Source: Candidatus Sulfomarinibacter sp.
GTDB lineage: Bacteria; Acidobacteriota; Thermoanaerobaculia; Thermoanaerobaculales; Sulfomarinibacteraceae
NCBI GenBank assembly: GCA_041560205.1
Contig: JBFFBV010000002.1
Coordinates: 22,278 to 86,277 of the forward strand
DNA: 64,000 bases
Direction of reading: 5' to 3'
The translations under genes and the position numbers were made by a program. The notes beneath the pieces were generated by a model, which saw only the letters and a program-made list of their open reading frames with translations, was not told where the DNA came from and searched no databases. The first letter of the stretch is position 1. Every line of letters starts with the position of its first letter. Positions 4,546 to 59,197 of this stretch are shown one piece after another.

Positions 4546-4626
4546 GGTGCCACCTTTCGCATTGTTTCCTCTGACGGCGCTCCCCTTCGGCAGGCGGGGA
4601 ATTCAAACAATGCGAAAGGTGGCACC
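4546..4626. repeat. Palindromic dispersed element family A, copy 1
   Basis: Perfect 22-bp inverted repeat GGTGCCACCTTTCGCATTGTTT (4546-4567) / AAACAATGCGAAAGGTGGCACC (4605-4626), followed by flank GGTGTCGTCGAAGCGGCC. Confidence 0.9.
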
Positions 4627-4674
4627 GGTGTCGTCGAAGCGGCCACGCGCCTCCAGTGTCATAGGTTGACAGTG

Positions 4675-4704
4675 TTGACCTTTCCTCCATCGGCGTGTTA
4701 TACG
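4675..4704 (+). promoter_or_regulatory. Putative sigma70 promoter of argR-argG-argH
   Basis: TTGACC (4675-4680), 18-nt spacer, TG-n-TATACG (4696-4704). The palindrome CGCATATGCG overlaps the 3' end of the -10 box and could be an ArgR site. Confidence 0.45.
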
Positions 4705-4725
4705 CATATGCGCATAGAAAGCAGG

Positions 4726-5196
4726 ATGCCCCGCAATCGATCCACCATCCGTCGAATCGAGATCCGCCGGCTGCTCGCGGAGGAAAGGATCACCAGCCAG
4801 GTCGACCTCGTCAGGCTCCTCGGCAAGGCGGGTCATCGGGTCACCCAGTCGACGGTGTCACGCGACCTCTCTGAGCTCGGCGCGCTCAAGATCGCCGAGA
4901 GCGAAGGGCGCGAGCGATATGTTCTACCGGAACACCAGGGGACATTGAACGAGGGTCGAAACCGCTTGCGAAGAACACTTGAGGATTACCTCGAAGGAGC
5001 GGTTCCCTCCGGCAATCTCGTCGTGCTGAAGGTCCGATCGGCGACGGCCGGGACCGTGGCGGCGGCGCTGGACGCCAGCCCGCCGAGAGGCGTGGTCGGC
5101 ACTTTGGCCGGCGATGACACGGTCATCGTGATCGCCGACGAGACGATCGGAGGAGGATCGGTCGCCAAGACGATCATCGGATTTCTGGAGGAATGA
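4726..5196 (+). CDS. argR: Arginine repressor
   Basis: ITSQVDL...[14 protein letters not shown] winged HTH and C-terminal GTLAGDDT; upstream of argG. Alternative ATG at 4708. Confidence 0.92.
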
Positions 5197-5197
5197 T

Positions 5198-6403
5198 GTG
5201 AAGGTCGTACTTGCATACTCGGGTGGACTGGACACGTCAGTCATCCTGCACTGGATCAAACAGACCTATGACGCCGAGGTCATTTCCTACACCGGAAATG
5301 TCGGGCAGATGGACGAGGACCTTGACGAAGTCCGCGAGGCGGCACTCGCAACCGGCGCCTCCGAGGCCGTCGTCGAAGACCTCCGTGAAGCGCTGGTGAC
5401 CGAATGCGTGTACCCGGCTCTCAAGGCCAACGCCGTGTACGAGTGGTACTACCTCCTCGGAACCGCGCTCGCCCGTCCCGTTCTCGCACGAGGATTGGTG
5501 CAGACGGCGGAAGAATTCAACGCCGACGCCATCGCGCACGGTGCCACAGGTAAGGGCAACGACCAGGTTCGATTCGAGCTGTCGGCCTACGCGCTCCAAC
5601 CCGAGATCCGAGTCATCGCGCCGTGGCGCGAGTGGGAGATGAAGGGGAGATCGGATCTGGTCGCCTACGCCGAAGAACACGGTGTGCCGATCCCGGCGGC
5701 GCCAAAACCCGCCTACTCGATGGACGCCAACCTGCTCCACGTTTCCTATGAGGGCGGTGTGCTCGAGGATCCTTGGGCGAGCCCTCCCGATGGCATGTTC
5801 CGCATGACCACGGATCCCGAGGACGCCCCTGACGAGGCCGAAACCGTGAGTGTGCGATTCGAAAAGGGTGAGCCGACCGAGGTCAACGGCATCGGGCTCG
5901 ATCCCGTGACCTTGCTCGAGACGCTCAACACTATCGGCGGTCGCCATGGGGTAGGTCGCGTCGACATCGTCGAGAACCGTTTCCTCGGGATGAAGAGCCG
6001 CGGCGTGTACGAAACCCCGGGCGGCACCATCCTCCACCACGCCCACCGGGCAGTGGAGTCCATCACCCTCGATCGCGAGGTGCAGCACCTACGCGACGAG
6101 CTCGTGCCGAGATACGCGGAGATGGTCTACAACGGGCTCTGGTTCAGTCCCGAGCGCGAGGCGCTCCAGCGCTTCATGGACACGGTCCAGGAACGGGTCG
6201 ACGGCGAGGCGCGGCTCAGGCTTTACAAAGGCGGTGTCATGGTCGAGGGGCGAAGGTCGGAGACCCACACCCTCTACGACGAGGCCGTCGCGACCTTCGA
6301 GGCCGACGAGGTCTACGATCAGGCGGACGCCGCCGGCTTCATCCGTCTCAATGCCCTCCGACTGCGGACGCTCGGCGGCAAGAGGATCTCGGAGGGAGAA
6401 TGA
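5198..6403 (+). CDS. argG: Argininosuccinate synthase
   Basis: [23 protein letters not shown] and [12 protein letters not shown] motifs. Confidence 0.97.
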
Positions 6404-7785: not shown

Positions 7786-7863
7786 GCAGAACCTCCAATG
7801 TCAAAACCGTGAAAAGAACCGAGCCAGGCAAAACTATCCACAGTCTCATTTCGTAGACACGCC

Positions 7864-10098: not shown

Positions 10099-10099
10099 G

Positions 10100-10576: not shown

Positions 10577-10712
10577 ACGACCCTCCGTCACAACGTACCA
10601 TACGCCTCAGAGGGTCAGAATACCACCTCGCTCCGGCGACCACGCACCTCCACCGAGCATTGATCTTCCGCGAGAAAAGCTCTCTTGGGAGGGGAAGAAT
10701 GCTGCGCGGTGG

Positions 10713-13330: not shown

Positions 13331-13337
13331 CTTCGCC

Positions 13338-13880: not shown

Positions 13881-14035
13881 GGCGGGTCAAACACTTCGGC
13901 CCGTTACTAAAATATTACCACAAGGCAAATTTGAGCAACAATTCGACGCAGCACAGCCCGAATTCGGACACTCGTGCGTCGATCACCGCCAGGACCACCA
14001 ACGGTCTTTCGTCAGCGCTTTGGTGTCGTGCCCGA

Positions 14036-15032: not shown

Positions 15033-15187
15033 GATACAAGATGCACCCGCCCTCCCTCCCGCCCGGATGCAGGATACAAGGCCACCCTTCCACTCCCACG
15101 GACTTTCAGACTCTCAAAACCGGGCGGGTGGGCGGCCCTGCATCTTGCATCGTGTTTCTGGGCGGGTGGCTGGTTGGGTGCATCCTG
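15033..15187. repeat. Palindromic dispersed element family B, copy 1
   Basis: GATACAAGATGCACCC...GGATGCAGGATACAAGGCCACCC arm with mirror GGGCGGCCCTGCATCTTGCATC...GGGTGCATCCTG; homologous to the copies at 37704, 41455 and 44786. Confidence 0.85.
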
Positions 15188-15250
15188 AAACTCAGTCACC
15201 GCTTCCTGTTGACGGAAGGCGATGCCGACGGTATACACGTCGAGCTTACG

Positions 15251-15868
15251 ATGATTTTGGAGATCGATCCCGTCGAGCCGGAACCCTGGCTGCTCGCGCG
15301 CGCCACACAGGTCTTGGGCGAGGGCGGTGTCGTGGTCATGCCGACTGACACCGTGTACGGAATGACCTGCGGCATCACCCATCACGAGGCGATTCGCCGG
15401 ATCTACAAGCTCAAGGACATGGATCCGAAAAAGCCCCTTTCGATCCTTGTCGGCGACATGTCCATGGTCGGCCGCTATGCGCGCGGCGTCTCGACGCCGG
15501 CCTTTCGGCTCCTCAAACGTGTGCTCCCGGGGCCATACACCTTTGTCTTCGAGGCAAGCCCGGAGGTTCCGAGGATCATGCTGCGCAAGCGCCGCACGAT
15601 CGGCATTCGAATGCCCGACAACCCGATCGCTCTCGCGTTGTTGGAGGAGATGGGGGAGCCCCTGCTCAGCTCCTCCATACGCGGTCCCGAGCAGGACTTC
15701 GTCAACGACCCGGAGGTGATCGACGTCTCCCTCGGCGACGACGTCGAGATGGTCATTGACGGTGGCATCCTGCTCCCAGTGCCATCGACCGTGGTGGATC
15801 TCTCGGGCAGCGAGCCGGTCCTGCTCCGCGAAGGCAAGGGGGACGTCGCGACCTTGGAACTCTTCTAG
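15251..15868 (+). CDS. Sua5/YciO/YrdC family protein (threonylcarbamoyl-AMP synthase-like)
   Basis: MPTDTVYG, KKPLSIL, LPGPYTF and IGIRMPD motifs. Upstream TTGACG-17-TATACA promoter. The ORF-track N-terminal extension is translated repeat B. Confidence 0.9.
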   Translation: MILEIDPVEPEPWLLARATQVLGEGGVVVMPTDTVYGMTCGITHHEAIRRIYKLKDMDPKKPLSILVGDMSMVGRYARGVSTPAFRLLKRVLPGPYTFVFEASPEVPRIMLRKRRTIGIRMPDNPIALALLEEMGEPLLSSSIRGPEQDFVNDPEVIDVSLGDDVEMVIDGGILLPVPSTVVDLSGSEPVLLREGKGDVATLELF

Positions 15869-15891
15869 GCGCATTGCGGTTTCGACGACTC

Positions 15892-15974
15892 AGGTACCAC
15901 CTTTCGCATTGTGTGGCGTCGGCGCGCTTCTGCTCGTCAACACGTTTCGATCACACAAGGGAAAGGTGGCACCT
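15892..15974. repeat. Palindromic element family A, copy 2 (reverse orientation)
   Basis: AGGTACCACCTTTCGCATTGTGTG / CACACAAGGGAAAGGTGGCACCT between convergent genes. Confidence 0.85.
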
Positions 15975-15999
15975 CTCGCGTCGACGCGGGGAGCGCTTC

Positions 16000-17193
16000 T
16001 CAAGAGGCGTTGTCGAAGCTCTGGCGCCCGTTGATTTGGGCAGTTTCCTCCACCACCTCGCGGATTTGCGAAGCGACGCGGTCTGGGTGGTAGAAACGCT
16101 CCCACATTCCCCTACCGCGGAGCCCTGTTTCGATCGCGGCATCCGGACTCTCGAGCAATGACACGATGGCTTCGACCCAACGGTTGGCACCGGACACCTC
16201 GACCACAGCTGTCCGCGCCTCGCCAACCAGCCCGGCGGCGGCCCACGGGTGAACCACCGCGGGCACACCTGCTGCCATCGCCTCGAGCACCTTCATCGGC
16301 ACACCCGAGCCCGAGCTCATCGGTGCGATCGCCGCCGTCGACCGGGCGAGATAGGAGCCGAGGTCCGGAACATCCGCGTGGACCTCGACCCCGGGCACCC
16401 GTTCGAGCTTGCGTATCTGGGGTGCGGGCCGCGCACCGGCCAACAGCCAACGCGCCCCAGGAACCAACGCATGAATGCGAGGCCACACCTTCGCGGCAAA
16501 CCACCGTGCGCTGCGGACAGTCGGCCGGTAGCCGAGGTTTCCCGACAGCAGGACCACCGGTTCGATGTCCGCACTTCGAGGCCGATCGACCTCCCTGCCC
16601 GCCACCGGGATCACCCGCCCCCTTTTCGCGGGCACCGAAAATGTCTCGAGGTCCCGTTCCGACACCGCCACGGAGGTCGTTGCAGCAGTCGCGAGGTGGA
16701 GTTCGCGTCGTCGGCACCTGGCAGCTTCAACCCGGTAGCCAAGGGACAGAGGCGGCGGGGCCGACCGCGCGGCGCTCTCGAAGTGGAGGCCCATCGAGTC
16801 GATGGCGTCGAAGATGATCGGTGTTCCCGGCGCGGACCTGCGGATCGTGTCGCAGGCCCACCCACAACGAAGCATCTGCACCACCGCGACATCGGGCGGT
16901 CGGTCTTTGAGAGCTTTGGCAAGGGCTGTGGCCGCTGCCGAGGTGTCGTAGAGACCCTCCTGCAGCGGTCGGCCACCGAGTGCGGCGCGAAACAGCCCGA
17001 CCGTCCGCGAGACAGCCCCCAGCCTGAATGGCACGCTCTCGACAGGCAGGGATGCGAGCGATTGGTCACCAGGGCTTGGGCACACGAGACTGAGCTCGTG
17101 TCCGGCGAGCGCCTCGATCCACTGCACGGTGCGCACCTGATTGCCGCGCCACGCCGGCAGCGGGCTCCGGCTGGTGACCAGGAGAATTCTCAT
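16000..17193 (-). CDS. Glycosyltransferase family 4 (GT-B)
   Basis: MRILLVTSRSP start and SGSGVPMKVLEAMAAGVP motif; ATG overlaps the stop of the DegT gene. Confidence 0.85.
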   Translation of the reverse strand: MRILLVTSRSPLPAWRGNQVRTVQWIEALAGHELSLVCPSPGDQSLASLPVESVPFRLGAVSRTVGLFRAALGGRPLQEGLYDTSAAATALAKALKDRPPDVAVVQMLRCGWACDTIRRSAPGTPIIFDAIDSMGLHFESAARSAPPPLSLGYRVEAARCRRRELHLATAATTSVAVSERDLETFSVPAKRGRVIPVAGREVDRPRSADIEPVVLLSGNLGYRPTVRSARWFAAKVWPRIHALVPGARWLLAGARPAPQIRKLERVPGVEVHADVPDLGSYLARSTAAIAPMSSGSGVPMKVLEAMAAGVPAVVHPWAAAGLVGEARTAVVEVSGANRWVEAIVSLLESPDAAIETGLRGRGMWERFYHPDRVASQIREVVEETAQINGRQSFDNAS

Positions 17194-18302: not shown

Positions 18303-18350
18303 GTCTTTCCTCCAGTTTCTCGGCGTTAGACAGGGTACCGCGGAATTGTG

Positions 18351-47496: not shown

Positions 47497-47551
47497 GAGA
47501 TCGTCATCCAGGGGGGAATGGTAACCCGGCCATCGCGTCTCGCTTCCACCC

Positions 47552-47690
47552 GAGGAGCGCTTCCCGCTTCGTCGTGCCAGGTGCCACCCTTCACATTGTT
47601 TGAATTCGTGACCTCCCAATCGAGCCACGCCATCAGGGCAAACAATGTGAAGAGTGGCACCGGTGTCGCTGAGTCCCCAACGCGCTTCTC
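47552..47690. repeat. Palindromic element family A, copy 3 (between rimM and trmD)
   Basis: Arms GGTGCCACCCTTCACATTGTTTG (47580-47602) / CAAACAATGTGAAGAGTGGCACC (47639-47661); outer ends GAGGAGCGC / GCGCTTCTC. Confidence 0.9.
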
Positions 47691-47700
47691 ACCTTGCTTC

Positions 47701-48246: not shown

Positions 48247-48485
48247 TACTCGAGGATTTCGAGGACGAATCGCTTCTGGACCTTCATCCCCGCCGCCGCC
48301 AGCAAGGTCCTGATGGCCCGAGCCGTCCGCCCCTGGCGGCCGATCACTTTTCCGAGGTCCTCGGTACGAACCCGCAGCTCGAGAACCGTCGTCTGCTCGC
48401 CCTCGACCTCTGTCACCGCAACATCTTCCGGATTGTCAACCAGTGCTTTCGCGATCTCTTCCAGCAGGTCTTTCATCGCACTCAT
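48246..48485 (-). CDS. khpA: KH-domain RNA-binding protein
   Basis: LVDNPEDV...[18 protein letters not shown]; lies between rpsP and rimM. Confidence 0.93.
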
Positions 48486-48543
48486 TGGAGCTCCCTTCAG
48501 AGGTGGGGAAGATGACCCGGAGCCCTCACGCCCCGGGCGCGCC

Positions 48544-48786
48544 TCACTGCTGTTGTTGAGCCTTACGAATCAAGGATCGCACAGTTTCAGACACTCCGGC
48601 CCCTTGACTCTGCCATTTTTCGACTTTTTCGAGGTCGAGCCTGATTTCCGGCGGGTCGAGGTGCGGGTTGTAGAAGCCCACCTGGTCAAGGTAGTCGGCC
48701 TGGGTGTCCTTGCGCGAATCCGACACCACGACACGGTAGACGGGGTTGTGCTTCGCACCACCACGCCGCAATCTGATCATCAACAT
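48544..48786 (-). CDS. rpsP: 30S ribosomal protein S16
   Basis: [22 protein letters not shown]...GFYNP. Confidence 0.95.
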
Positions 48787-48809
48787 TTGATTCCTCCCTG
48801 GGCGGATAT

Positions 48810-50144
48810 TCAGCCGATTCCCAATTGACGTTTCAGCGCACGGGGATCGGCCTTGCCCAGACGCTTCATGAGCTTACGCATCTGTCCGTATTGACGCAAG
48901 AGGCGATTGATTTCTTCCACGCTGGTTCCGGAGCCTTTTGCGATTCTCTTCTTTCGTGATCCGTTGAGCAGCTGCGGGTGGCGGCGCTCCTTGGGGGTCA
49001 TGGAGTCGATGCAGGCCTCCATCCGCCGGAGCTGGCGTTCCTGGCCTTCGCCCATCCCGCCCTCGGGCATCACCTTGCCCATGCCCGGTACCATCTCCAT
49101 GACCGACTGCAGCGGTCCCATCTTCTTGAGGCTGCGCAGCTGGTCCCGCAGGTCCTCGAGGTCGAATTTGTTCTTCTTGAGCTTCGCCTCGAGCCGACGG
49201 GCTTTCTTCTCGTCGACGGCATCCTGCGCCTTCTCCACCAGCGTCAGGACATCGCCCATCCCGAGGATTCGGCCGGCCATACGGTCGGGGTGGAATTGCT
49301 CGAGATTATCGATCTGCTCGCCGACACCGGCGAAAACGATCGGCTTGCCGACGACCTCGCGGACCGAAAGCGCCGCTCCACCGCGCGCATCACCGTCCAG
49401 CTTGGTGAGGATGACACCGGTGATTTCGAGGCGCTCGTGAAATGCTCGCGCTGAACGCACCGCGTCCTGGCCAGTCATCGAGTCGGCTACGAAGAGGACC
49501 TGCTTCGGCCTGAGGATTCCCTTGAGGCGCTGCAGCTGCTCCATCAACTCGTCGTCGATGTGCAACCGCCCCGCAGTGTCGAAGATCAGGACCTGATAGC
49601 CCTTGACCGAGGCCTCGCGAAGAGCCTGGCGGGCAATAGCCTCGGGATCGTCCATCTCCCGGGTATCGACGGTCGGGATCGAGGCTTGCTCACCGAGGAC
49701 CAGGAGCTGCTCGCGGGCAGCGGGGCGCGAGGTGTCGGCTGGAACGAGCAGTGGAAAGAGGCCCTTGCGGTCCTTGATCCACCGGGCCAACTTCGCCGCC
49801 GTCGTCGTCTTACCCGAACCCTGGAGACCGACCAACATGACCACCGACGGGCGCCCTTTGAAGCTGAGCTCGGCGGTTTCGCCGCCGAGGAGGCTGACCA
49901 GCTCTTCGTGGACGATCTTCGTCACCATCTGGGCCGGCGTCACGGAGTTCAACACCTCTTTGCCGAGGGCTCTGGTCCGCACCCGATCGATGAAGCCGGA
50001 CACGACCTCCACGCTGACATCCGCTTCGAGCAGAGCGAGCCTGATCTCACGCAGCGCGGTGTCGATGTGGTACTCGGTCAGGTGCCCCTCACCTCTGAGG
50101 GTCTTGGTGACGCGAGCCAGACGGTCCTGAAGCCCTTCCAACAT
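48810..50144 (-). CDS. ffh: Signal recognition particle protein
   Basis: GLQGSGKTT, DTAGRL, TKLDGDARGG and M domain (SMTPKER...RIAKGSG). Confidence 0.97.
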   Translation of the reverse strand: MLEGLQDRLARVTKTLRGEGHLTEYHIDTALREIRLALLEADVSVEVVSGFIDRVRTRALGKEVLNSVTPAQMVTKIVHEELVSLLGGETAELSFKGRPSVVMLVGLQGSGKTTTAAKLARWIKDRKGLFPLLVPADTSRPAAREQLLVLGEQASIPTVDTREMDDPEAIARQALREASVKGYQVLIFDTAGRLHIDDELMEQLQRLKGILRPKQVLFVADSMTGQDAVRSARAFHERLEITGVILTKLDGDARGGAALSVREVVGKPIVFAGVGEQIDNLEQFHPDRMAGRILGMGDVLTLVEKAQDAVDEKKARRLEAKLKKNKFDLEDLRDQLRSLKKMGPLQSVMEMVPGMGKVMPEGGMGEGQERQLRRMEACIDSMTPKERRHPQLLNGSRKKRIAKGSGTSVEEINRLLRQYGQMRKLMKRLGKADPRALKRQLGIG

Positions 50145-50256
50145 GGGACGGGCAGTCTAAGGGAGAGCCCTGTGCAGGTCAAGGGGCGCGGGGAGCCAAG
50201 CGTTTGGCGTGGAGTACTTTGGAGGACGCGCGGACAACGGTACAATACAGATGGAA

Positions 50257-51165
50257 ATGGGCGCCGTGCATCCAATCGTCCTCCCGCCGCGTTGTCCGGG
50301 TGGTGAGGATCCAGAGGTCCAGGAGTTCCTGCGCCTCGTGCGGGTCGTGACCGGCGCGACCTGGGCCGAGCTCGAGCTGCAACCGAATGGATCGGCGCCG
50401 AGCCAAAAGTACCGTCTCGGATCCGGCAACGGAATCGTCGCGCGCGCGGAACTCGCCGTCGGGAGGGATTTCGACGCCATCCTTCGGCTCGGAGGGCTTG
50501 CGGAGCCGGAGGGCGAGCAGGTCGAACTGCTGACGGATTCGCTCGCGCGTATGCTCGATAGAAGGCGACTGCTCATCCAGGCCGAAATCCTGCGAGGCGC
50601 CTTGGAATCCATCCCGAGCTCGGTCTTTCTCTTCGACGACGAGGGCGAGATCCTCTTTGCGAGCCCGTCGGCGGATCGGCTCCTCTCCCTGCAAACCGAG
50701 GACGAGCTCCTCGCCACATGCAGCGACCGGCCGACGCAGCCGCTCTTCACCCTTTTGAGCTCACTGGCGGATGGCGTCGCCTCGGGCGACCGTACGGCGC
50801 CGAACTGGAAGGGAACGGTCGAGCTCGGCGACGGCCGGGTGATGCACTGCTTGACGACCCGTTTGCTGGATCCGGCCGCCGATCTGCCGGGGGCCGTCCT
50901 CGTGCTCCTCCAGCCGCTGGAGTCCGAGGTCGACGCCCGGGTTCAGACCTTTTCGTTGAGCCACGGCCTCAGCCCACGAGAGCAGGAGGTGCTCGGGCTT
51001 CTCGAAAAAGGGCTGACCACAGGTGCGATCGCGGAGAGCCTCGGTATCAGCCCGCACACGGTCCGAGACCACCTCAAACACCTCTATCGCAAAACCGGCA
51101 CCAAGGGCCGGAGCGAATTGCTCGGTCTGATCACGAGGGCGACCCGCGTCACGGCTGAGGCTTGA
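50257..51165 (+). CDS. PAS-like plus LuxR-family HTH transcriptional regulator
   Basis: C-terminal LSPREQEVL...G.T...IA..L.IS..TV..HL..LY.K. Start uncertain (50251 or 50257); TACAAT at 50241. Confidence 0.82.
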   Translation: MGAVHPIVLPPRCPGGEDPEVQEFLRLVRVVTGATWAELELQPNGSAPSQKYRLGSGNGIVARAELAVGRDFDAILRLGGLAEPEGEQVELLTDSLARMLDRRRLLIQAEILRGALESIPSSVFLFDDEGEILFASPSADRLLSLQTEDELLATCSDRPTQPLFTLLSSLADGVASGDRTAPNWKGTVELGDGRVMHCLTTRLLDPAADLPGAVLVLLQPLESEVDARVQTFSLSHGLSPREQEVLGLLEKGLTTGAIAESLGISPHTVRDHLKHLYRKTGTKGRSELLGLITRATRVTAEA

Positions 51166-51169
51166 AAGA

Positions 51170-51255
51170 GCTTTCGGCCGTCAGCAATACGCTTTCAGCT
51201 CCTCCTCCCTGCCATCGACAGTCCGCTGGAGGCTGATACCTGACTGCTGACAGCT
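51170..51255. repeat. 7-mer tandem-repeat palindrome, family E
   Basis: gctttcg-gccgtca-gcaatac-gctttca-gct ... gctggag-gctgata-cctgact-gctgaca-gct, running into TATAAT. Confidence 0.65.
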
Positions 51256-51280
51256 ATAATGATGTGTGGAGGTCAGAAAA

Positions 51281-52039
51281 ATGTCTCGGTTACGCGTATT
51301 GGGTGTCGTGACAGCCGTCATCCTGATCGCCGCGGTCCTGGTGGCGGCGCAAGGGTACGTTGTGATCCTCAAGAGCGGCCACAAGATCCGCTGCAAAGAA
51401 CCGATGCGAATCGAAGGGAACAATGCCATCCTCACGCTCGCGACCGGTACGGTTGCCAGCTATCCGCTCCAGCTCGTCGACCTCGTCGAGACCGAGCGCT
51501 ACAACCAGCTCGGTCTCGGAGACGCCCTGATGATCGAGGAGCTATCGGTCTCTGGAACTCCGGCGCCAACAGCCACTCCGTACACGTCGCTCGGGCAACA
51601 CGCGACCATTGACGCCAGTCCCAGCGGTCCGACCCTCGGGTCGACCATCGAACCGACGCCAGTTCCGACGCCCGGGATCAAACTCCAGTCCGAGAAGTAC
51701 CACGACGAGCGGGTCGAACAGGCCTTCGCCAGGATCTTCGACGACAAGGAGCTCCTGATCTACCGGACGAGCCAGGGCACGCAACCCGATTACTTTTTCG
51801 TCCAGACCGTGACGGACTCCGAGAGTGAGGTCTTCGAAGCGCTCGAGACCGTCGCCGAGGCATACAATCTGATCAACCGAATCCACGGGGAGATCGCTCC
51901 GGACGCCGTCGAGCTGGAGATGATCCAGACCTCCGGCAAAGCGGCCGGCACCTTCCGCCTCACGCCGGCGCTCGCCAAAGAGCTGGTGGACGGTGAAACG
52001 CCGACCCAGACGTTCTACATCAAGAACGTCATCTTCTAG
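51281..52039 (+). CDS. Hypothetical exported protein
   Basis: GGAGG RBS, N-terminal signal peptide and P/T-rich linker; TATAAT at 51255-51260. Confidence 0.75.
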   Translation: MSRLRVLGVVTAVILIAAVLVAAQGYVVILKSGHKIRCKEPMRIEGNNAILTLATGTVASYPLQLVDLVETERYNQLGLGDALMIEELSVSGTPAPTATPYTSLGQHATIDASPSGPTLGSTIEPTPVPTPGIKLQSEKYHDERVEQAFARIFDDKELLIYRTSQGTQPDYFFVQTVTDSESEVFEALETVAEAYNLINRIHGEIAPDAVELEMIQTSGKAAGTFRLTPALAKELVDGETPTQTFYIKNVIF

Positions 52040-52066
52040 GGTGCCGCCCTCGCGGGTGACGGCGAC

Positions 52067-53383
52067 ATGAGCCAAAGCAAGATCGCCGTCGTCGGCGCAG
52101 GTCTCGCCGGTTTGACTGCGGCCCTCCGTCTGACCGAAGCCGGTCACCGGGTCAAGGTCTTCGAGCGCTACCCCCGTCCTGGCGGTCTCGCGCGCGTGCT
52201 GGAGGTCGAGGGCGAGCCTCTCGAGGCCTTTTACCACCACCTGTTCACGAGTGACACGGCCTACGTCGCCCTCGCAAAGGAGCTCCAGGTCGACGACCTG
52301 ATCGAGTGGCTGCCGTCGCGGATGGGTATCTGGACCGACGGTCGGCTGTGGGACTTCGGCACCCCGCAGTCGCTCCTTCGCTTCCGACCGCTTTCGTTGC
52401 TCGACAAGATGCGCTTTGCGGCATCGACCCTGCTCCTGCAGCGCAGCAAAGACCCGTCAAGCTTCGAAGATATCACCGCCCACGACTGGATCTGCCGCCA
52501 CCAGGGAGAGCGCGTCTGGAACAAGGTGTGGGGACCGCTCTTTCACCAGAAGTTCGCCGAAGACGCCGACAAGGTGGCCATGGTGTGGCTGTGGGGCAAG
52601 CTCTGCCTCAGGGGGAAATCGAGGTCGGCATCGGGCATGGGTGAGCTGCTCGGCTATATGCGGGGGTCCTTCGCCAAACTCGTGGAGAAATTGGAGACTC
52701 GTCTCGAAAAAAGCGGCACCGAGCTTCTCCTGAGCGATGCGGTTCAGCGAATCGACCGCACAGTCGGCGGACTCGCGATCCAGGGCCGCAACTCGTCATG
52801 GACCGCCGACAAAGCGGTGGTCGCGACACCCGTGCCCGACTATCTCGAGATCGCGGGCCATCTCCTGACGGAGGACGAGCACGACAATCTGGCCGGTCTC
52901 CGCGCCACCGGCGCCATCTGTACGATTTTGGAGCTCGAGCACTCGCTGACCCCGTACTACTGGCTCAACATCGCCGACCCCGACATGCCCTTCGGCGGCC
53001 TCATCGAACACACCAACTACATCCCGCGCGACCGCTACGGAGGTCGTCACATCCTTTACATCTCAAACTACCTGTTCACCGACCACCCGCTCTTCGAAGC
53101 GCCCAGGAAGAAGGTCCTCTCGAGCTACCTGCCCGCACTCACACGGATCAACGAAGCCTTCGACCCGGCGTGGATCGTCGACAGCCACCATTTCAGGGCG
53201 GCCTACGCCCAGCCCGTGGTCCCGGTCGGATATCGTGATCTGATCCCGTCTTTTCGATCCACGGTTCCAGGGCTTTACCTGTGCACGATGGCCCAGATTT
53301 TCCCCGAGGACCGAGGCCAGAACTACGCCATCGCCTACGGGGAGAAAGTCGCACGGGAGCTTCTACGGGATCTTCGGGACTGA
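52067..53383 (+). CDS. FAD-dependent oxidoreductase (amine oxidase/protoporphyrinogen oxidase-like fold)
   Basis: VVGAGLAGL dinucleotide motif, GGLA, FYHH and C-terminal QIFPEDRGQN. Confidence 0.85.
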   Translation: MSQSKIAVVGAGLAGLTAALRLTEAGHRVKVFERYPRPGGLARVLEVEGEPLEAFYHHLFTSDTAYVALAKELQVDDLIEWLPSRMGIWTDGRLWDFGTPQSLLRFRPLSLLDKMRFAASTLLLQRSKDPSSFEDITAHDWICRHQGERVWNKVWGPLFHQKFAEDADKVAMVWLWGKLCLRGKSRSASGMGELLGYMRGSFAKLVEKLETRLEKSGTELLLSDAVQRIDRTVGGLAIQGRNSSWTADKAVVATPVPDYLEIAGHLLTEDEHDNLAGLRATGAICTILELEHSLTPYYWLNIADPDMPFGGLIEHTNYIPRDRYGGRHILYISNYLFTDHPLFEAPRKKVLSSYLPALTRINEAFDPAWIVDSHHFRAAYAQPVVPVGYRDLIPSFRSTVPGLYLCTMAQIFPEDRGQNYAIAYGEKVARELLRDLRD

Positions 53384-53398
53384 GGCGGGAGGGAGGAG

Positions 53399-53490
53399 GG
53401 GTGCCACGTTTCGCATTGTTGCATTGCATCCACGGATCGTCACGCCAGTTATCGAGCTCCCGCAATGCAACAATGCGAAACGTGGCACCC
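53399..53490. repeat. Palindromic element family A, copy 4
   Basis: Perfect 29-bp inverted repeat GGGTGCCACGTTTCGCATTGTTGCATTGC / GCAATGCAACAATGCGAAACGTGGCACCC. Confidence 0.92.
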
Positions 53491-53568
53491 TTCTGGCACC
53501 TTTTGAATGGTGTACCATTGGGCCGCCCGCGGCACACGGGCAGAATGCGAGCATGGAGGCACGACTCG

Positions 53569-53895
53569 ATGGCAGCCAATGCGGTAGAGATCACAGATGC
53601 GAATTTTGACGAGATGATCCTCAACGCGGACAAACCCGCGCTGGTAGATTTCTGGGCAGTATGGTGCGGACCGTGCCGGGTGATCGGCCCGATCGTCGAG
53701 GAACTCGCGGCCGAGTACGGGGACCGAATCGTCGTCGGCAAGCTCGACGTGGATGCGAACCGCGACACGGCTGTCAAGTATGGGATCCAGGCCATTCCAA
53801 CCCTGCTCTTGGTCAACAACGGTGAGATCGCCGATCGAATCGTCGGCGTGACGGACAAGGCGAGCCTCTCGTCGAAGCTGGACAGCCTCCTATAA
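53569..53895 (+). CDS. trxA: Thioredoxin
   Basis: VDFWAVWCGPC and IPTL motifs; GGAGG RBS. Confidence 0.96.
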   Translation: MAANAVEITDANFDEMILNADKPALVDFWAVWCGPCRVIGPIVEELAAEYGDRIVVGKLDVDANRDTAVKYGIQAIPTLLLVNNGEIADRIVGVTDKASLSSKLDSLL

Positions 53896-53986
53896 TTCGC
53901 GGAGCCTCCCCCTCGCGCGCACAGCTCGTGAAGCGCCTGAGAATCGGTCAGGCGCGTGTTTACCGGGCATGACTGAGGTCTGAACC

Positions 53987-55861
53987 GTGTTGTGTCAGTC
54001 TTGCGGCGCCGCCAACCCCTCCGAGACGGACAACTGCCACCGGTGCGGCAACAAGCTGCTGGTGGTATCCGGCGTGGTCGGGCCTGCGGAAGCGCCCGAA
54101 GAGTTCTTCGTCCAGGCCCAGGAGGAACTCGAGGAGCACATGCTCGAGCGCATCAGCGTGCTGGAGGACGGTGTGCGACGCCTGTCGGAGGCACTCGCAT
54201 CCACGGCCCAACACCTGGCACAGCTGGAGCACAACCTGACGGTTGCCCACGCCGGAGTCCAATCTCTCGGCGGGCTCCTCGAGTCGCAGGGGATCGTCAC
54301 CCGCACCGAGGTGGTCGACGGCTGGGAGCGGACCGCCGATCAGGAACTCCTCTCCCGTGATCTCTCCCGACGATTCAAGGCCCACTCCGACCGGATTCTC
54401 TCCCAGGCATCCCACACGGGCCACGCGAACACCGCATTCCGTGACAAGCTCCGAGCGCTCGAGCTCGCCCTCGTCGGACCGGACACCGAGGTCGTGCGCG
54501 ATCTCCTCACCGAGCTCGCGGCGATGGCACCTGACAGCGACGAGCTTTGGTCGTTCATCGGCGAGGCCGCATTTCACAGCGGTGAGCTTGAAACTGCGCG
54601 CATCGCCTTTCGCAAGGTCCTGGAGCTGCGAGGTCCCCAATTTGAGGCCCTCGTCTACCTGGGTGCGGTTTCGTCGGATCTCGGACAGTGGGACGAGGCC
54701 GAAGAGGCTCTCACCCGAGCGAAGGAGATGGCTCCCGACGCATTTCTCCCGCACTTTGCGCTCGGCGCGCTCAACGTGCTCAAAGGACGACATCTCGACG
54801 CCGTCGCCGATCTCGAACGCAGCCTGGAGATCGAAGAGGCCCCCCAGAGCTGGTACCTGCTCGGACTGAGCCGTCTGGAGCTCGGGCAGAGCGGTCGTGC
54901 CGTCGAAGCATTGAGACGAGCCACCGCAATCGCACCCGACTTCGAAGAGGCGCTCTATCACCTCGGCGTTGCCTATCTCAGACGCGGCTGGAACAACAAG
55001 GCTCTGGAGGCTTTTCAGCGAGTTCTTCGCCTCGACCCGCAGAGCCTCCAGTACCAGGAGACGGTCCGCATGCTGAGCGGAACCCCTCCGAGCGATCTCC
55101 CCGGCGAGAGCGCCCATCTGGCGGGGCTCGCGGAAGCGGCCCTCGAAGAAGGTCGCCCCGCCCAGGCGCTCGACCTCTTCACGAAGGCCCTCGACTCGGC
55201 GCCCGGCCAAGCCGAGCTTCAGGCAACGGCGGCACTCCTCGCATCGGCGCTTGGGCGGGTCCGCCAGGCGATCGCGTATTCGCACGCGATTCTCCGCGAC
55301 AGACCGCAGGGTTCGCCCTATCTGGCCGCCGCTGTGGTCGCCCTGTTGGAGTCACTCCGCCATGCCGGAAGGCTTCGTGCATCGCGCCGGATCGCGAGGC
55401 GCCTTCGCCACGAGCGAGATCTCGACGAGCTGGCACGCGGAATGGCCACCTACGAGCTGGCCGTTGTCGAAACCGAGCTCGGTGAAGACCTGGTCGTCGC
55501 CCGCGACCTCGCCCGCGAGGCCCTCGAAAGGGCGCCCCGTGAGCTTCGCCACTATCCGCTGGCGGTGCTCGGCTCGATCGCCCTCAAGAGGGGCCGCTAC
55601 CACGAGGCGATGCAGTACCTCGAGCAAGCGGCACGTGCCGGTGTGGCGGAGCCGCCGCTTCTGCGTCAGCTCGCCCTGGCCCGACTCGGTGCCGGCGATC
55701 CATCGGGCGCCGACGAGGCCCTGCAGACGGCCAATGGCGACGCCAAAGGCGGCATCGATCACGAGCTGCTCGACCACGTCCGCCGCCTCGGCGGTTTGAT
55801 CGGCGACATCGCCCGCAATCATCGGCCCCCGACGAATCGGCGTGCAGGAAGACGGAGCTGA
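53987..55861 (+). CDS. Zinc-ribbon / coiled-coil / TPR protein
   Basis: N-terminal CxxC-x10-CxxC, heptad region, then multiple TPRs. Confidence 0.8.
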   Translation: MLCQSCGAANPSETDNCHRCGNKLLVVSGVVGPAEAPEEFFVQAQEELEEHMLERISVLEDGVRRLSEALASTAQHLAQLEHNLTVAHAGVQSLGGLLESQGIVTRTEVVDGWERTADQELLSRDLSRRFKAHSDRILSQASHTGHANTAFRDKLRALELALVGPDTEVVRDLLTELAAMAPDSDELWSFIGEAAFHSGELETARIAFRKVLELRGPQFEALVYLGAVSSDLGQWDEAEEALTRAKEMAPDAFLPHFALGALNVLKGRHLDAVADLERSLEIEEAPQSWYLLGLSRLELGQSGRAVEALRRATAIAPDFEEALYHLGVAYLRRGWNNKALEAFQRVLRLDPQSLQYQETVRMLSGTPPSDLPGESAHLAGLAEAALEEGRPAQALDLFTKALDSAPGQAELQATAALLASALGRVRQAIAYSHAILRDRPQGSPYLAAAVVALLESLRHAGRLRASRRIARRLRHERDLDELARGMATYELAVVETELGEDLVVARDLAREALERAPRELRHYPLAVLGSIALKRGRYHEAMQYLEQAARAGVAEPPLLRQLALARLGAGDPSGADEALQTANGDAKGGIDHELLDHVRRLGGLIGDIARNHRPPTNRRAGRRS

Positions 55862-55863
55862 AC

Positions 55864-57588
55864 ATGCGTTGGACCAGGACTTTCATACACACGCTGCGCC
55901 AGGACCCCTCGGATGCCGAGGTCGTATCGCACCGCCTGATGACCCGTGCAGGACTGATCTCGAAGGTCGCTGCGGGCATTTACAACTATCTGCCCCTCGG
56001 CTGGCGATCGCTTGCGAAGCTCATGCTCATCATCCGCGAGGAGATGGAGCGGGCCGGCTCCGCCGAGCTCGTGATGCCGGCCATCCAGCCGGCGGAACTG
56101 TGGCAGGAATCCGGCAGGTGGTTCGAGTACGGACCGGAGCTGCTGCGGATGAACGACAGGCACGAGCGTGACTTCTGCTTCGGACCGACGCACGAGGAGG
56201 TCATTACCGACATGGTTCGGCGATCCGTCACCTCCTATCGCCAGCTCCCGGTCAACCTCTTCCAGATCCAAACGAAGTTCCGCGACGAGATCAGGCCCCG
56301 CTTCGGCCTGATGCGCGGTCGTGAGTTCGTGATGAAGGACGCCTACACATTCCACACCGATGCCGAAGATCTCGATGCCGCCTACCGAGCGATGGAGCAG
56401 GCCTATTGCCGGGTCTTCGAGCGCTGCGGTCTCGGATACACGCAGGTCGAGGCCGACACCGGCAATATCGGCGGCTCGGAGTCGCACGAGTTCATGGTCC
56501 TCGCCGACACCGGTGAGGACGCGATCCTCTCGTGTCCCTCGTGTTCCTATGGCGCGAACGTCGAAAAGGCGGAAGCGGGGCCAGTGGCGGCCGCTCCCGA
56601 CTGGCCGCTCGACCGGCCCGACCGGCCCGAGGCGGTCGACACGCCCGATCTGCGCACGGTGGAGGAGGTTGCAGAGTTCCTCGGCATCTCCCCGGCCCAC
56701 CTCATCAAGACCCTGATCTTCGAGACCGACGAGGACTTCGTGGCGGTCCTGATCCGCGGAGATCTCGAGGTCAACGAGGTCAAGCTCAAGAACGAGATCG
56801 GCTGCACCCACCTCCAGCTCGCTTCCGAGGCCAAGATCGAGGAGGTCACGGGCGGACCGCAGGGCTTTTCCGGACCGGTCGGCCTCGAGGACATCCGCAT
56901 CGTCTCCGACCCTTCGGTGATGGACCTCGAGGTGGCGGCAACCGGCGCGAACGCCAATGACACCCACCTCGTCGGTGTCGTCCCGGGCCGCGATTTCACC
57001 CCGTCGCTGGTGGCGGAGCTTCGTCTCGCCACCGCCGGTGATCCCTGTCCCTCCTGTGATACTTCGTTGATCGAGAAACGGGGCATCGAGGTGGGCCATA
57101 TCTTCAAGCTCGGCACCAAGTACTCCGAATCCATGAACTGCCGCTTCCAGGACGCCGAAGGCAACGAGCAGCCGATGATCATGGGCTGTTACGGCCTCGG
57201 TGTCGGCCGCACGGTGGCGGCAGCGGTCGAACAGAACCACGACGACAAAGGCATCATCTGGCCACTGCCCCTGGCCCCGTACGAGGTACTGCTGGTCGTA
57301 CTCAACGCCGACAAGCCCGAGGTCGTCGAGGCAGCGAGGGGGCTCTATCAGGAGCTCGTCGACGCGGGCATCGATGTCCTCTTTGACGACCGGAGCGAAC
57401 GGCCGGGGGTCAAGTTCAACGACATGGACCTGATCGGCTTTCCGGTTCGAGTAGTCCTCGGTCAGCGGGGACTCGATGCGGGCGAGGTGGAGCTCAGCCT
57501 GCGACGCGACGGCGAGAAGCGGGCGACACCGATTGCGGAGATGGTGCCTGCCGTGCAAGCGCTTCTCGAGGAGTTGCGAAGCCAGTAG
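55864..57588 (+). CDS. proS: Proline-tRNA ligase (with INS editing domain)
   Basis: GPTHEE, FRDEIRPRFGLMRGREF, GIEVGHIFKLG and MGCYGLG motifs. Confidence 0.97.
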   Translation: MRWTRTFIHTLRQDPSDAEVVSHRLMTRAGLISKVAAGIYNYLPLGWRSLAKLMLIIREEMERAGSAELVMPAIQPAELWQESGRWFEYGPELLRMNDRHERDFCFGPTHEEVITDMVRRSVTSYRQLPVNLFQIQTKFRDEIRPRFGLMRGREFVMKDAYTFHTDAEDLDAAYRAMEQAYCRVFERCGLGYTQVEADTGNIGGSESHEFMVLADTGEDAILSCPSCSYGANVEKAEAGPVAAAPDWPLDRPDRPEAVDTPDLRTVEEVAEFLGISPAHLIKTLIFETDEDFVAVLIRGDLEVNEVKLKNEIGCTHLQLASEAKIEEVTGGPQGFSGPVGLEDIRIVSDPSVMDLEVAATGANANDTHLVGVVPGRDFTPSLVAELRLATAGDPCPSCDTSLIEKRGIEVGHIFKLGTKYSESMNCRFQDAEGNEQPMIMGCYGLGVGRTVAAAVEQNHDDKGIIWPLPLAPYEVLLVVLNADKPEVVEAARGLYQELVDAGIDVLFDDRSERPGVKFNDMDLIGFPVRVVLGQRGLDAGEVELSLRRDGEKRATPIAEMVPAVQALLEELRSQ

Positions 57589-57610
57589 GCGCTTCCTGCA
57601 GCGACGCGCA

Positions 57611-57708
57611 AGGTACCACCTTCACCATTGTCGCCTGTCATGACACGAGTGCGTGGCTGTGAGAAGCGCTCCTCAGGGTGGTCGGCGACAATGGTGAAGG
57701 TGGTACCT
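57611..57708. repeat. Palindromic element family A, copy 5
   Basis: Perfect 25-bp inverted repeat AGGTACCACCTTCACCATTGTCGCC / GGCGACAATGGTGAAGGTGGTACCT; between convergent genes. Confidence 0.9.
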
Positions 57709-57745
57709 GTGTCGCCGAAGCGGCCTCGCGCTCCTCAATAAGCCC

Positions 57746-58858
57746 TCAATCCAGCGACAGCACCTTCCTCGCGACCTCGATCATGTCCCCCTTCGCTTGC
57801 ACGAGCATCTTGAGGTCAGAACCCATGCCTTCCGGATCGAGCAGGCGCTTGACCTCCTGACGGGCCGAAACCGTCGTCGCGTCGAGGTCGGCTTCCATTC
57901 CGAGGCCTCGAGATTCGAGCTCCTGTTCGAGGCCCGAACGAATCAGAAACTCCGCCAACGGCCAAAGCTCAATTTCGGTCCATTTGGCAGCCGATGCCGC
58001 GACTCGCAGATCGTCCCAGTTGACATGAGCGGTGAGATCGACCTCTCCCGGAGCGATCAACGGGTCCCGACCCAACTGGTGGCGGCGAAAGGTCGTTAAC
58101 GAACCTCCGCCCCTCCCCCTGGCATCGTAGAGCCTCCGCGCCTCGTACCCGTAATCCAAAACAAGGCTCGCGCCGTTGCCCCCGGCCATGGTGAGCAACC
58201 GGGAGTGCAAGGGTGCGGCGTCCAGGTTTGCCTCGGCAATCTGACCCTCCTCGATCTCGATGCCGTGGCTCGCGAAGTACGCCTCGACCTCGGGACGAGC
58301 CGGACGACGTCTCCACGCCAGCCCGCCTGAATCCACGCCAAGCGCCATCTCTGCCAAGCCCCCGCGGTCACCCGCGACCCGCACGACAGGGAGTGCGTCA
58401 TACAGCTCGGACGCGTGAACGACGGTGGCTTCCGTCAGAGCCTCGATCTCCCGTTCGTTCCCCGCCCAGCGAACAGGCACAACCGCGCCAGCCAGTCGCG
58501 CTTTTTGGAGATCGCGCATCGATGGCGAGCGCTCGATCGAGGTCACCTCTCCCAGCACGTCCGGCACCTTCGGGCCGAGGGCCTCGAAGAGACCGGAGAT
58601 CAGTGCCCCGTCCCCTGATGCGAGATCAATCAGGTGAAGCGGTCCGGTCGCGGCGGAAATCGAGGTCAGCAGACGCGCAAGCACTCTCGCGTACCACTCG
58701 GAAGCCGTCGGCGCGGTCAGAAAATCGCCCCCACGACCGCAGCGCGGCTCAGCGCGCGAGTAGTAACCGTGCTGCGGGTGGTAGAGGGCGAGCTCCATGA
58801 AGACGTCGAAGGTGACCTCGCCGCCTCGGGCCTCGATCTCATCAACGATCCAGGACAT
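57746..58858 (-). CDS. SAM-dependent methyltransferase, MidA/NDUFAF7 family
   Basis: FMELALYHP..GYY, GDFLTAP, ELYDALPV, DYG, DLTAHVNW and L..P.GMG motifs. Confidence 0.88.
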   Translation of the reverse strand: MSWIVDEIEARGGEVTFDVFMELALYHPQHGYYSRAEPRCGRGGDFLTAPTASEWYARVLARLLTSISAATGPLHLIDLASGDGALISGLFEALGPKVPDVLGEVTSIERSPSMRDLQKARLAGAVVPVRWAGNEREIEALTEATVVHASELYDALPVVRVAGDRGGLAEMALGVDSGGLAWRRRPARPEVEAYFASHGIEIEEGQIAEANLDAAPLHSRLLTMAGGNGASLVLDYGYEARRLYDARGRGGGSLTTFRRHQLGRDPLIAPGEVDLTAHVNWDDLRVAASAAKWTEIELWPLAEFLIRSGLEQELESRGLGMEADLDATTVSARQEVKRLLDPEGMGSDLKMLVQAKGDMIEVARKVLSLD

Positions 58859-58907
58859 GGGGAGATAGTAACCCGGGGGAGCGCTTCCTGCGTCGACGAC
58901 TCCCAGT

Positions 58908-59046
58908 GAGGAGTGCTTGGGTGCGTCATCGACACAGGAGCCACCTTGAGCATTGTTCGCCCGAGACGCGTCGCGTGATTTCGGGGCGACACGTTCGAAC
59001 AATGCAAAAGATGGCACCCCGCACGTCGATGCGATTCGCACTCTTG
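58908..59046. repeat. Palindromic element family A, copy 6 (reverse orientation)
   Basis: Arms GGAGCCACCTTGAGCATTGTTCG (58937-58959) / CGAACAATGCAAAAGATGGCACC (58996-59018); outer ends GAGGAGTGC / GCACTCTTG. Confidence 0.8.
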
Positions 59047-59060
59047 ATGGGCGGGGGTCC

Positions 59061-59197
59061 GGGAAGCGCTTCTCGCATCGGTGTGTCAGGTGCCACCCGT
59101 CGCATTGTTTGATGTACCGCGCTCACGGCGGACTCGCACTGAGGGCAAACAATGCGACGAGTGGCACCGGTGTCGTCGAAGCGGCCAAGCGCTCCTC
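59061..59197. repeat. Palindromic element family A, copy 7
   Basis: Arms GGTGCCACCCGTCGCATTGTTTG (59089-59111) / CAAACAATGCGACGAGTGGCACC (59146-59168); right flank GGTGTCGTCGAAGCGGCC is identical to copy 1. Confidence 0.9.

Follow-up and report, generated by a model that had tools for sequence, protein, structure and literature searches.

Intergenic hairpin doublets in Candidatus Sulfomarinibacter as probable miniature partners of a TIRtron-type Y1/HUH transposase

In this study, we analyzed a stretch of 64,000 nucleotides from Candidatus Sulfomarinibacter sp. (assembly GCA_041560205.1, contig JBFFBV010000002.1, positions 22,278 to 86,277), referred to here as the window, and a family of palindromic repeats, family A, which is dispersed between its genes and probably represents the miniature form of the ends of a transposase gene located elsewhere in the genome. 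An initial annotation made from the letters of the window had described seven strictly intergenic copies with co-varying arms. All seven are present, all lie between genes, and at all seven loci an inverted pair of arms encloses a loop. For the 19-nt arm GGTGCCACCTTTCGCATTG, the window contains 11 matches with up to 3 mismatches; shuffled sequences gave a mean of 0.02, and 0 of 100 reached 11. The cores of copies 1 to 7 are located at 4546-4626, 15893-15973, 47580-47661, 53400-53489, 57612-57707, 58937-59018 and 59089-59168, so that four of the arm starts given initially are correct, while those at 15892, 53399 and 57611 are each one base low. Read at each locus, the ATTG-to-CAAT gaps are 43, 44, 44, 52, 58, 44 and 42 nt in this order, which agrees with the 42-44 nt described for five copies and the 52 and 58 nt described for two. 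Also the mirrored arm variants CTTTCGC/GCGAAAG, GTTTCGC/GCGAAAC, CTTCACC/GGTGAAG, TTCAC/GTGAA, GTCGC/GCGAC and GGTACC/GGTACC were all found again. As DNA, all seven copies fold into strong hairpins (z -3.09 to -10.25), and only 0-1 of 200 shuffles of each fold as well.

A Pfam scan of the flanking open reading frames (ORFs) placed the copies in tandem, convergent and divergent gaps, as had been claimed, and additionally in one gap within an operon. Strands are given in the canonical orientation of the family, as in a 27-sequence alignment (A2), and outer modules are the conserved segments beyond the core arms. Copy 1 (4533..4655, minus strand) has core arms at 4546-4564 and 4608-4626 around a 43-nt loop, an intact right and a truncated left outer module (z -4.94), and lies in a tandem gap 20 nt past the stop codon of an AcrB-type pump gene (1247-4525, plus strand) and upstream of argR/argG. 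Copy 2 (15869..16006, plus strand; core 15893-15973), with both outer modules and a degenerate right arm, CAAGGGAAAGGTGGCACC, fills the convergent gap between a Sua5/YrdC gene (15041-15868, plus strand) and a glycosyltransferase gene (16000-17334, minus strand; z -3.37). Copy 3 (47552..47690, minus strand; core 47580-47661) is a full element of the commonest subfamily with both outer modules (z -5.48) and is located in the gap within the rimM-trmD operon. Copy 4 (53399..53490, no strand assigned) belongs to the transposase-type subfamily introduced below; it has no outer modules, and its 29-bp arms carry a two-unit CATTGTTGCATTG motif (z -10.25). It occupies a tandem gap between an amine oxidoreductase gene (52067-53383, plus strand) and a thioredoxin gene. 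Copy 5 (57589..57737, minus strand) carries the GGTACC variant in its two arms (57612-57630 and 57689-57707), which enclose a loop of 58 nt, has both outer modules (z -7.07), and fills the gap between the convergent genes proS (55864-57588, plus strand) and a Methyltransf_28 gene (from 57746, minus strand). Between the Methyltransf_28 gene and rimP-nusA, which are divergent, copy 6 (58877..59050, plus strand) is degenerate, with arms GGAGCC.. / ..GATGGCACC and a duplicated left outer module (z -3.09), and it is adjoined by copy 7 (59061..59199, minus strand; core 59089-59168), a full element with both outer modules (z -6.04). Tandem clusters of doublets such as that at 58877-59199 also occur in relatives.

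For analysis of the whole family, we scanned the genome to which the window belongs (G000), a 4.68-Mb draft of 184 contigs with 63.8% G+C and 93% completeness. It contains 284 arms at up to 4 mismatches. Inverted arm pairs, termed doublets, number 120 at up to 5 mismatches and 104 at up to 4 mismatches, the latter with 38 unpaired arms, thus about 100 in the genome; after removal of duplicates and outsized pairs, a working set of 98 doublets remained. Among the 120 doublets, cores fall mainly into two length classes, 73 nt (21 copies) and 79-82 nt (80 copies). The oriented consensus of about 150 bp is built of two core arms of 23 nt around a variable, asymmetric loop, with an outer module in front of the first arm and its mirror image behind the second; the outer module consists of CCCATGAGAAGCGC, a short spacer and then GCnTCGACGACACC. 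A single arm has neither a stem-loop of its own nor a GTAG end, and the consensus fold pairs arm with arm only. The loops define at least four larger subfamilies with 32, 20, 13 and 11 copies, and the 98 elements carry 59 distinct left-arm haplotypes. Only 3 of the 98 doublets lie within rough ORF proxies. Using the same rough ORF-based gene proxies, convergent gaps are enriched, with 31 of 88 classifiable doublets (35%) compared to 668 of 3212 gaps (21%).

The outer module is part of the element and not a pre-existing target. The possibility that the modules form a palindromic target into which cores had been inserted was rejected, as 27 full left modules were found genome-wide, followed in 22 cases by a canonical and in 3 by a variant core, and the remaining two resemble chance matches within coding DNA. 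The genome showed no outer palindrome free of a core, the five adjacent left-right matches all looking like coding DNA; a looser version of the motif is too common in coding DNA to be useful. Searches for the family in plasmid records gave no match. In Rfam, only a tRNA-Gln reached the gathering score in the whole window, so that no catalogued family corresponds to the repeats at this score, and at E <= 1 the region 57400-59400 yielded only sub-threshold hairpins, that is, generic matches to eukaryotic miRNA precursors with 13.6-28.9 bits against cutoffs of 50-180.

Co-variation of the arms had been proposed from the window copies, and it is statistically borne out for the core. Over 23 core positions of the 98 elements, 94.1% of the cells pair, compared to 88.0% with shuffled partners (best of 200 shuffles: 88.9%). 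Joint changes are frequent at position 10 (C/C 67, T/T 22), position 11 (T/T 81, C/C 12), position 14 (G/G 65, A/A 30) and position 21 (T/T 54, C/C 32), while a wobble or mismatch is fixed at arm position 9 (41 elements with T.G, 17 with C.A). The two arms of one element differ by 1.55 mismatches on average, compared to 3.73 against any other element and 2.77 against the element with the most similar loop; relative to the arm of that latter element, the own arm has fewer mismatches in 63 elements, as many in 23 and more in 12 (n = 98). Fully concordant arms occur as 14 distinct haplotypes. Further counts were taken from alignments made here of 27 sequences out of about 100 elements. For these, RNAalifold predicted only a 21-bp core, in which 96.6% of the cells are paired and both partners vary in 8 of the 21 pairs. 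The covariation score of this core helix together with a 6-bp local hairpin is 0.165, compared to 0.092 in shuffles, none of which reached the observed value (0/500), and to 0.047-0.088 in slid controls. Such compensatory changes are common in REPIN hairpins, according to the accessible text of Bertels and Rainey (PMC3116915).

The co-variation is real in the 21-bp core and was not seen in the outer arms. A hairpin of about 140 nt had been described initially, and the outer modules GAGRAGCGC / GCGCTYCTC on which it was built are indeed conserved in most copies; they pair poorly, however, so that a core stem of 21-23 bp is backed by pairing and covariation and a stem of 140 nt is not. Both a long-range and a local pairing of the outer modules were considered and rejected, since only 59.5% of the cells pair in the outermost helix and 61% in the alternative local right hairpin, and no element-specific pairing was seen across the 98 elements (43.3% within compared to 43.5% between elements).

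No transposase had been noticed in the window, and a Pfam Y1_Tnp search of the genome agrees with this, as its five matches are all located on other contigs (C72, C5, C95, C108 and C153). The initial annotation had suggested looking for copies flanking an HUH or RAYT gene, and this was positive for contig C95. Its match is an ORF of 340 aa flanked by GGGTGCCACGTTCCGCATTGTTGCATTGT and the exact complement, two arms of 29 nt with 100% complementarity at a distance of 1025 nt, which represent terminal inverted repeats (TIRs) carrying the GGTGCCAC..TTC.GCATTGT core of the family. Between the left arm and the start codon there are 52 nt, and the last codons of the ORF contain the right arm. This TIR is matched at 26 of 27 aligned bases by copy 4 of the window and at 27 of 27 by a copy on C151, and its 28-nt typed part has 27 genomic matches of at least 24 nt with up to 3 mismatches. 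Paralogs on C5 and C108 (343 and 334 aa, 36-37% identical) show the same layout with other repeats that also begin with GTGCCA. For each of these TIRs, only three matches were found, namely the two arms of the gene and one more copy. The genome thus holds three intact paralogous genes, each with distinct repeats, and only one of the TIRs has been amplified.

The three long paralogs reach 87.6 (C95), 85.3 and 81.3 bits with the NCBIfam model REP_Tyr_transpos (NF047646; cutoff 80) and also pass Pfam Y1_Tnp; Pfam detected nothing in their last ~190 residues. Across 28 aligned homologs, H60, H62 and Y119 do not vary, and we read them as the HUH histidines and the tyrosine motif; the C-terminus of many homologs is ..NATMRNVAP, which the right arm encodes. 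An AlphaFold2 model of the C95 protein (pLDDT 77.8) shows a nuclease domain at residues 1-186 and a helical domain at residues 232-322, joined by a disordered linker. The top Foldseek match is 4er8_A, E. coli TnpA_REP with a REP (repetitive extragenic palindromic) hairpin (E 8e-8, TMt 0.71). DnaA domain IV on a DnaA box also matches (3pvp_A and 1j1v_A, TMt 0.82, 91-93 columns), and this match probably falls on the helical domain at 232-322, because of its alignment lengths of 91-93 columns. The C95 protein is therefore predicted to combine a TnpA_REP-type nuclease with a DNA-binding domain similar to DnaA domain IV.

The gene-flanking TIRs have a further internal feature. In 15 of 24, an exact direct repeat of at least 6 nt with a period of 8-9 nt was found, which starts about 12-18 nt inside GTGCC; the best direct repeat per TIR has a mean length of 6.1 nt, compared to 3.6 nt in shuffles. 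The repeated units differ between paralogs (loci L108-L137, L014), and amplified doublets keep one unit only. Judged from the sequences, these paralog-specific units could be the site for the DnaA-like domain. The main text of PMC3733652 does not use the term 'direct repeat'; its supplements may list such TIRs.

The commonest doublets have a one-unit arm (..TTCGCATTGTTTG..), and their best gene-linked match is located on contig C83, at a remnant of 52 codons whose product shares 78% identity with residues 1-40 of the C95 protein. The left TIR of this remnant, ..TTCGCATT-AACTCATT-GTT.., corresponds in the main to the common arm extended by an 8-nt unit. Because this remnant is the best gene-linked match, the cognate gene of the main subfamily is decayed or missing in the 93%-complete assembly.

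Besides doublets, solo TIRs of the two-unit type were observed, and these share one direction: nine of nine on C83 (249-20560) and five on C95 (1296-14643), there upstream of the transposase gene. They are 0.03-9.7 kb apart, with unrelated genes between them (transporters, PD40 Ser/Thr kinases, hydrolases), and in some cases GGCACCC follows 5 nt further on, giving a mini-hairpin of 7 bp. Contig C72 harbors a second, separate pair of Y1 gene and repeat: a 148-aa IS200-type gene flanked by classical REP-like hairpins, GACGCCC-AAA-GGGCGTC (locus L011, 1320-2106), whose 26-nt repeat unit has seven genomic matches of at least 24 nt.

The distribution beyond this genome was analyzed with an exact 20-mer of the family and with a strict doublet pattern. 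Of 24 other genomes of the genus, 12 contain the 20-mer (range 1-70), with counts of 70, 59 and 52 in three of them and at most 15 in the rest; in the order's other family, all 16 genomes lack it. With the strict pattern, G000 yields 56 doublets, and 300 further Acidobacteriota genomes, sampled evenly over the phylum, yield none. The doublets are thus restricted to one genus, and their copy number and subfamily make-up vary between its species. Public records with the exact 20-mer are mostly metagenome-assembled genomes (MAGs) titled Candidatus Sulfomarinibacter, Sulfomarinibacteraceae or Thermoanaerobaculia. It was also observed in MAG records titled Alphaproteobacteria, Deltaproteobacteria, KSB1, Planctomyces and Bacteroidia (L032, L081, L091, L023, L043, L070); under the title Alphaproteobacteria there are two loci, including a doublet, on one contig of 288 kb. 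These could be mislabelled or mis-binned contigs, or cases of transfer.

Homologs of the C95 protein were found in 22 of 25 genomes of the genus, with up to 19 matches per genome, many of them diverged paralogs and fragments, and many are named 'REP element-mobilizing transposase RayT' by JGI. In 24 of 30 fetched homologous loci, a perfect inverted repeat spanning 1047-1373 bp surrounds the gene, mostly starting with GGTGCCA. Many homologs of the C95 protein are located on contigs of 1.0-1.4 kb, so the unit of gene and TIRs, termed a TIRtron in the literature discussed below, seems to assemble alone, cut at its repeats. Such short contigs are likely dropped on binning, and absence of the gene from a MAG is therefore weak evidence. 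Between close C95 orthologs and 20-mer copy number no clean relation was found across the genus; TIRs differ between species, and TIRtrons are likely lost from bins. In one relative (G006), the TIR of the orthologous gene carries CACATTTGT, and the doublet subfamily with the same motif is expanded there, with 24 exact matches compared to 3, 1, 0 and 0 in G000, G003, G007 and G016.

For comparison of orthologous sites, we used a 14-kb stretch around copies 3-7, which is syntenic in all 24 other genomes of the genus. In the rimM-trmD gap, family members are present in G000 and G003; six species have a gap of only 17-67 bp, and five others hold unrelated repeats there. Copy 3 lengthens the gap to 204 bp, in a conserved operon at 46738-48246 of the window. 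The proS gap contains one family member in G000, two in G003, two plus fragments in G006 and two copies in G007, and related variants with different outer modules in G001, G017, G021 and G024. Other intergenic repeat families of the genus were also observed in gaps used by family A; these are bracketed by inverted arrays of tandem heptamers (GAGTTTT.../...AAAACTC, CACCAAGA..., GAATTCAAAA...) at L143, L146, L155, L140, L165, L154 and L159. Comparison of filled and empty orthologous sites yielded neither boundaries nor target duplications, as the intergenic DNA does not align and the flanking genes share only 70-85% DNA identity. A metagenome scan with TrmD for closer strains gave a best match of 67% protein identity and thus no usable relative. 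Contigs from public runs (two DNA and two RNA runs; window 45001-61000) stop at or break inside the repeats and gave no clean empty-site joint; apparent joints between copies 3 and 7 were other family members with different loops.

The direction of a doublet can be set by its loop and outer modules, and it follows the local GC skew. Forward doublets are found at positive and negative skew in 21 and 20 cases, reverse doublets in 11 and 46 (odds ratio 4.4, p 0.001), and a marker-based orientation gave an odds ratio of 6.7 (p 8.5e-5). The link persists with one vote per contig (12/9 compared to 6/21, p 0.018) and within convergent and divergent gaps alone (13/9 compared to 3/22, p 0.0016). No link to the direction of the neighboring gene was found in tandem gaps (p 0.35). 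As orientation follows GC skew and not gene direction, a strand-specific insertion on the DNA level is favored over a role on the RNA level. By analogy, the bias points to a DNA-level, strand-specific process as for the IS200/IS605 transposases, which, as the available text of PMC6006769 states, target the lagging strand.

The initial annotation had not recognised the family. Its kind fits a class named in 2013 by Di Nocera, De Gregorio and Rocco (PMC3733652), in which RAYT-like genes flanked by long inverted repeats are called TIRtrons and their proteins TIRYTs. According to the main text of that work, TIR families are moderately abundant and occur in dimers and clusters, the Acidobacteria contain a sharply defined TIRYT group, only one of three K. 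versatilis TIRs is repeated, and a GGGGWSAS motif is found in the majority of TIRYT TIRs, not in all. TIRYTs correspond to subclass 2.1 of TnpA-Y1 and to RAYT group 1 of Bertels (Quentin et al. 2018, PMC6006769); for this subclass the available text gives a DnaA-C/HTH-like tail, states that no REP-like sequences were found near the genes, and doubts that the tail reads the TIR, as GGGGWSAS is unlike a DnaA box. Likenesses to the published class are several: a RAYT-like Y1/HUH gene that is longer than classical RAYTs and lies between long TIRs rather than REP hairpins, a C-terminal DnaA-C/HTH-like domain (here by predicted fold of a 340-aa protein), a right TIR overlapping the 3′ end of the gene, and several paralogs per genome with a TIR of their own, of which only some are amplified as dimers or clusters. 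Differences are that the TIR starts with GGGTGCCAC, where by our own comparison (G)GGTGCCA[CG] agrees with at best 6 of 8 GGGGWSAS positions, that the C-terminal domain is undetected by a Pfam sequence search, that the commonest doublets add outer modules to give units of about 150 bp, and that the host is an uncultivated Thermoanaerobaculia genus from marine sediment. From subclass 2.1 as described, the system differs by about 100 doublets in G000. The system thus shares three features with the class, as its gene lies between TIRs, the fold of its protein includes a DnaA-like tail and its TIR family is dispersed; GGGGWSAS is not among them. The C95 layout, the DnaA-like tail and the dispersed TIR family assign the system to the TIRtron/TIRYT class. 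This kind of element is already known and barely studied, and the features added here are the orientation bias resembling a replication-strand bias and the internal direct repeats in the TIRs.

Likenesses also exist to the REPIN-RAYT systems of Pseudomonas and Enterobacteria (Bertels & Rainey 2011, PMC3116915; Bertels et al. 2017, PMC5581495), for which, as far as the accessible text goes, inverted hairpin doublets are dispersed, extragenic and clustered, show compensatory changes in the hairpin and are accompanied by a Y1 gene flanked by the same repeat. In contrast to REPINs, the arm described here has neither its own hairpin nor a GTAG tag, so that a stem exists only between two arms, and the transposase, which has many paralogs in the genus, is of the long type ending in a DNA-binding tail. 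In G000 there is one intact gene per TIR type, a count to be read with the divergence of the genus paralogs and the incompleteness of MAGs. E. coli TnpA_REP (4ER8) is the best structural match to the N-terminal domain, with the HUH and Tyr motifs kept, but shares only 22% identity over 149 columns and, with 165 residues, has no DnaA-like domain. With the IS200/IS605 insertion sequences IS608 and ISDra2, the system shares the nuclease fold and an orientation biased relative to a replication-strand proxy; these have subterminal hairpins at their ends according to the available text of PMC6006769, unlike the long terminal inverted repeats here.

From these data, we consider it likely that family A consists of miniature, gene-less doublets of a TIRtron TIR, which are non-autonomous partners of a TIRYT-type Y1/HUH transposase. 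Thereby the non-autonomous, REPIN/MITE-like hairpin element proposed initially is supported, as the arms match the repeats around a RAYT-type gene. The transposase would act in trans on the doublets by a single-stranded route linked to the replication fork, like that of IS608 and ISDra2 and the one proposed for REPINs. Arm pairing in a single-stranded intermediate would keep the arms complementary, either by selection for pairing or by mismatch correction within the hairpin. The conserved GGTGCCA end would serve the nuclease domain, and the direct repeat with its 8-9-nt period in gene-flanking TIRs would serve the C-terminal domain. By analogy to REPs, secondary effects on host transcripts, such as termination or mRNA stabilisation, are possible. 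Much more tentatively, and with more doubt than confidence, we propose for the DnaA-tailed RAYT class (subclass 2.1/group 1) that it disperses hairpin doublets by a single-stranded route biased to a replication strand, with two-part recognition, in which the nuclease domain would read the shared GGTGCCA end and the DnaA-IV-like domain the paralog-specific TIR repeat. The arrays of equally oriented solo TIRs near the genes might then be one-ended products of this mechanism.

Several observations weigh against the reading as TIRtron doublets. No transposition event was seen among the diverged relatives, in the public-run contigs or in the metagenome scan. The commonest subfamilies have outer modules and a one-unit arm, both missing from the intact TIRtron on C95, and the gene that matches them best is only the C83 remnant of a 93%-complete assembly. 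In a draft genome, replication direction can only be approximated by GC skew, and copies that share a contig are not independent. The TIR misfits GGGGWSAS, a motif that the majority of TIRYT repeats carry according to PMC3733652. As a weak point, the copy-rich genomes G003 (best identity 36%) and G007 (no match, 66% complete) have no close C95 ortholog in their assemblies.

Some of these points would suit immobile relics or host-recruited sites, that is, binding sites of a transposase-derived regulator or nucleoid organiser, or a decaying old burst. The truncated cognate gene of the commonest subfamily fits such a history, as do the divergence of the copies into 59 left-arm haplotypes in 98 elements and the several gaps that hold family members in four species, and the left TIR 52 nt upstream of the transposase start codon would suit autoregulation. 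This explanation appears very unlikely, however, because the strong differences in subfamily make-up and copy number between species need lineage-specific amplification, and because decay would erode the arm concordance, which is above that of the nearest relatives. A different possibility is that the repeats are primarily structured RNAs (terminators, mRNA stabilisers or small RNAs) under selection on transcripts, with the likeness to transposase repeats being secondary. All seven window copies form strong hairpins, several follow directly on stop codons and one lies within the rimM-trmD operon, so that they are probably transcribed; convergent gaps are enriched (35% compared to 21%), the arms co-vary, and REPs have such roles according to the text of PMC3733652. 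Against this, orientation tracks GC skew and is unrelated to the direction of tandem genes (p 0.35), position 9 is T.G in 41 and C.A in 17 elements in a canonical orientation independent of gene direction, the loops are variable with many subfamilies, no Rfam family reaches the gathering score, and no T run follows the stems of copies 1-7, which makes a primary RNA role very unlikely.

Finally, classical MITEs, derived by deletion from a DDE-type insertion sequence and moved by cut-and-paste with target-site duplication, would share terminal inverted repeats, a length of 90-170 bp, the location between genes and the clustering. Only Y1/HUH genes were found between matching arms, although no search for DDE transposases was made, and no flanking duplication was visible in the copies read, the ends of which are fuzzy and were not formally tested. 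We regard this origin as very improbable.

Apart from the repeats, one further element was observed in the compared gaps. At 53500-53545 of the window, upstream of the thioredoxin gene, there is a motif like ATGGTGTACCATTGGGCCGCCCG, which all eight relatives compared keep at the orthologous sites in L142-L164, in a gap that is otherwise not conserved; the motif may be a promoter or operator.

In the literature searched, the terms TIRtron and TIRYT were used only by Di Nocera 2013 and Quentin 2018, and no biochemistry of the class was seen in the available text of either (PMC3733652, PMC6006769). The genome analyzed here provides a rich natural data set, with about 100 doublets in several subfamilies, three intact paralogs, a decayed paralog and subfamily expansions that are specific to species among the sister genomes. 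The orientation bias and the co-variation of the arms are two testable handles on the mechanism and bear on the persistence of REPIN-like populations. For annotation of MAGs of marine Acidobacteriota, the repeats explain contig breaks and the likely loss of 1.1-kb transposase contigs from bins. Copy 3 in rimM-trmD is a natural case for studying polar effects of a hairpin repeat on a ribosome-biogenesis operon. If the proposed relationship is true, the genus would be a natural test bed for the dispersal of doublets by a RAYT class that, in the available text of PMC6006769, is reported without REP partners.

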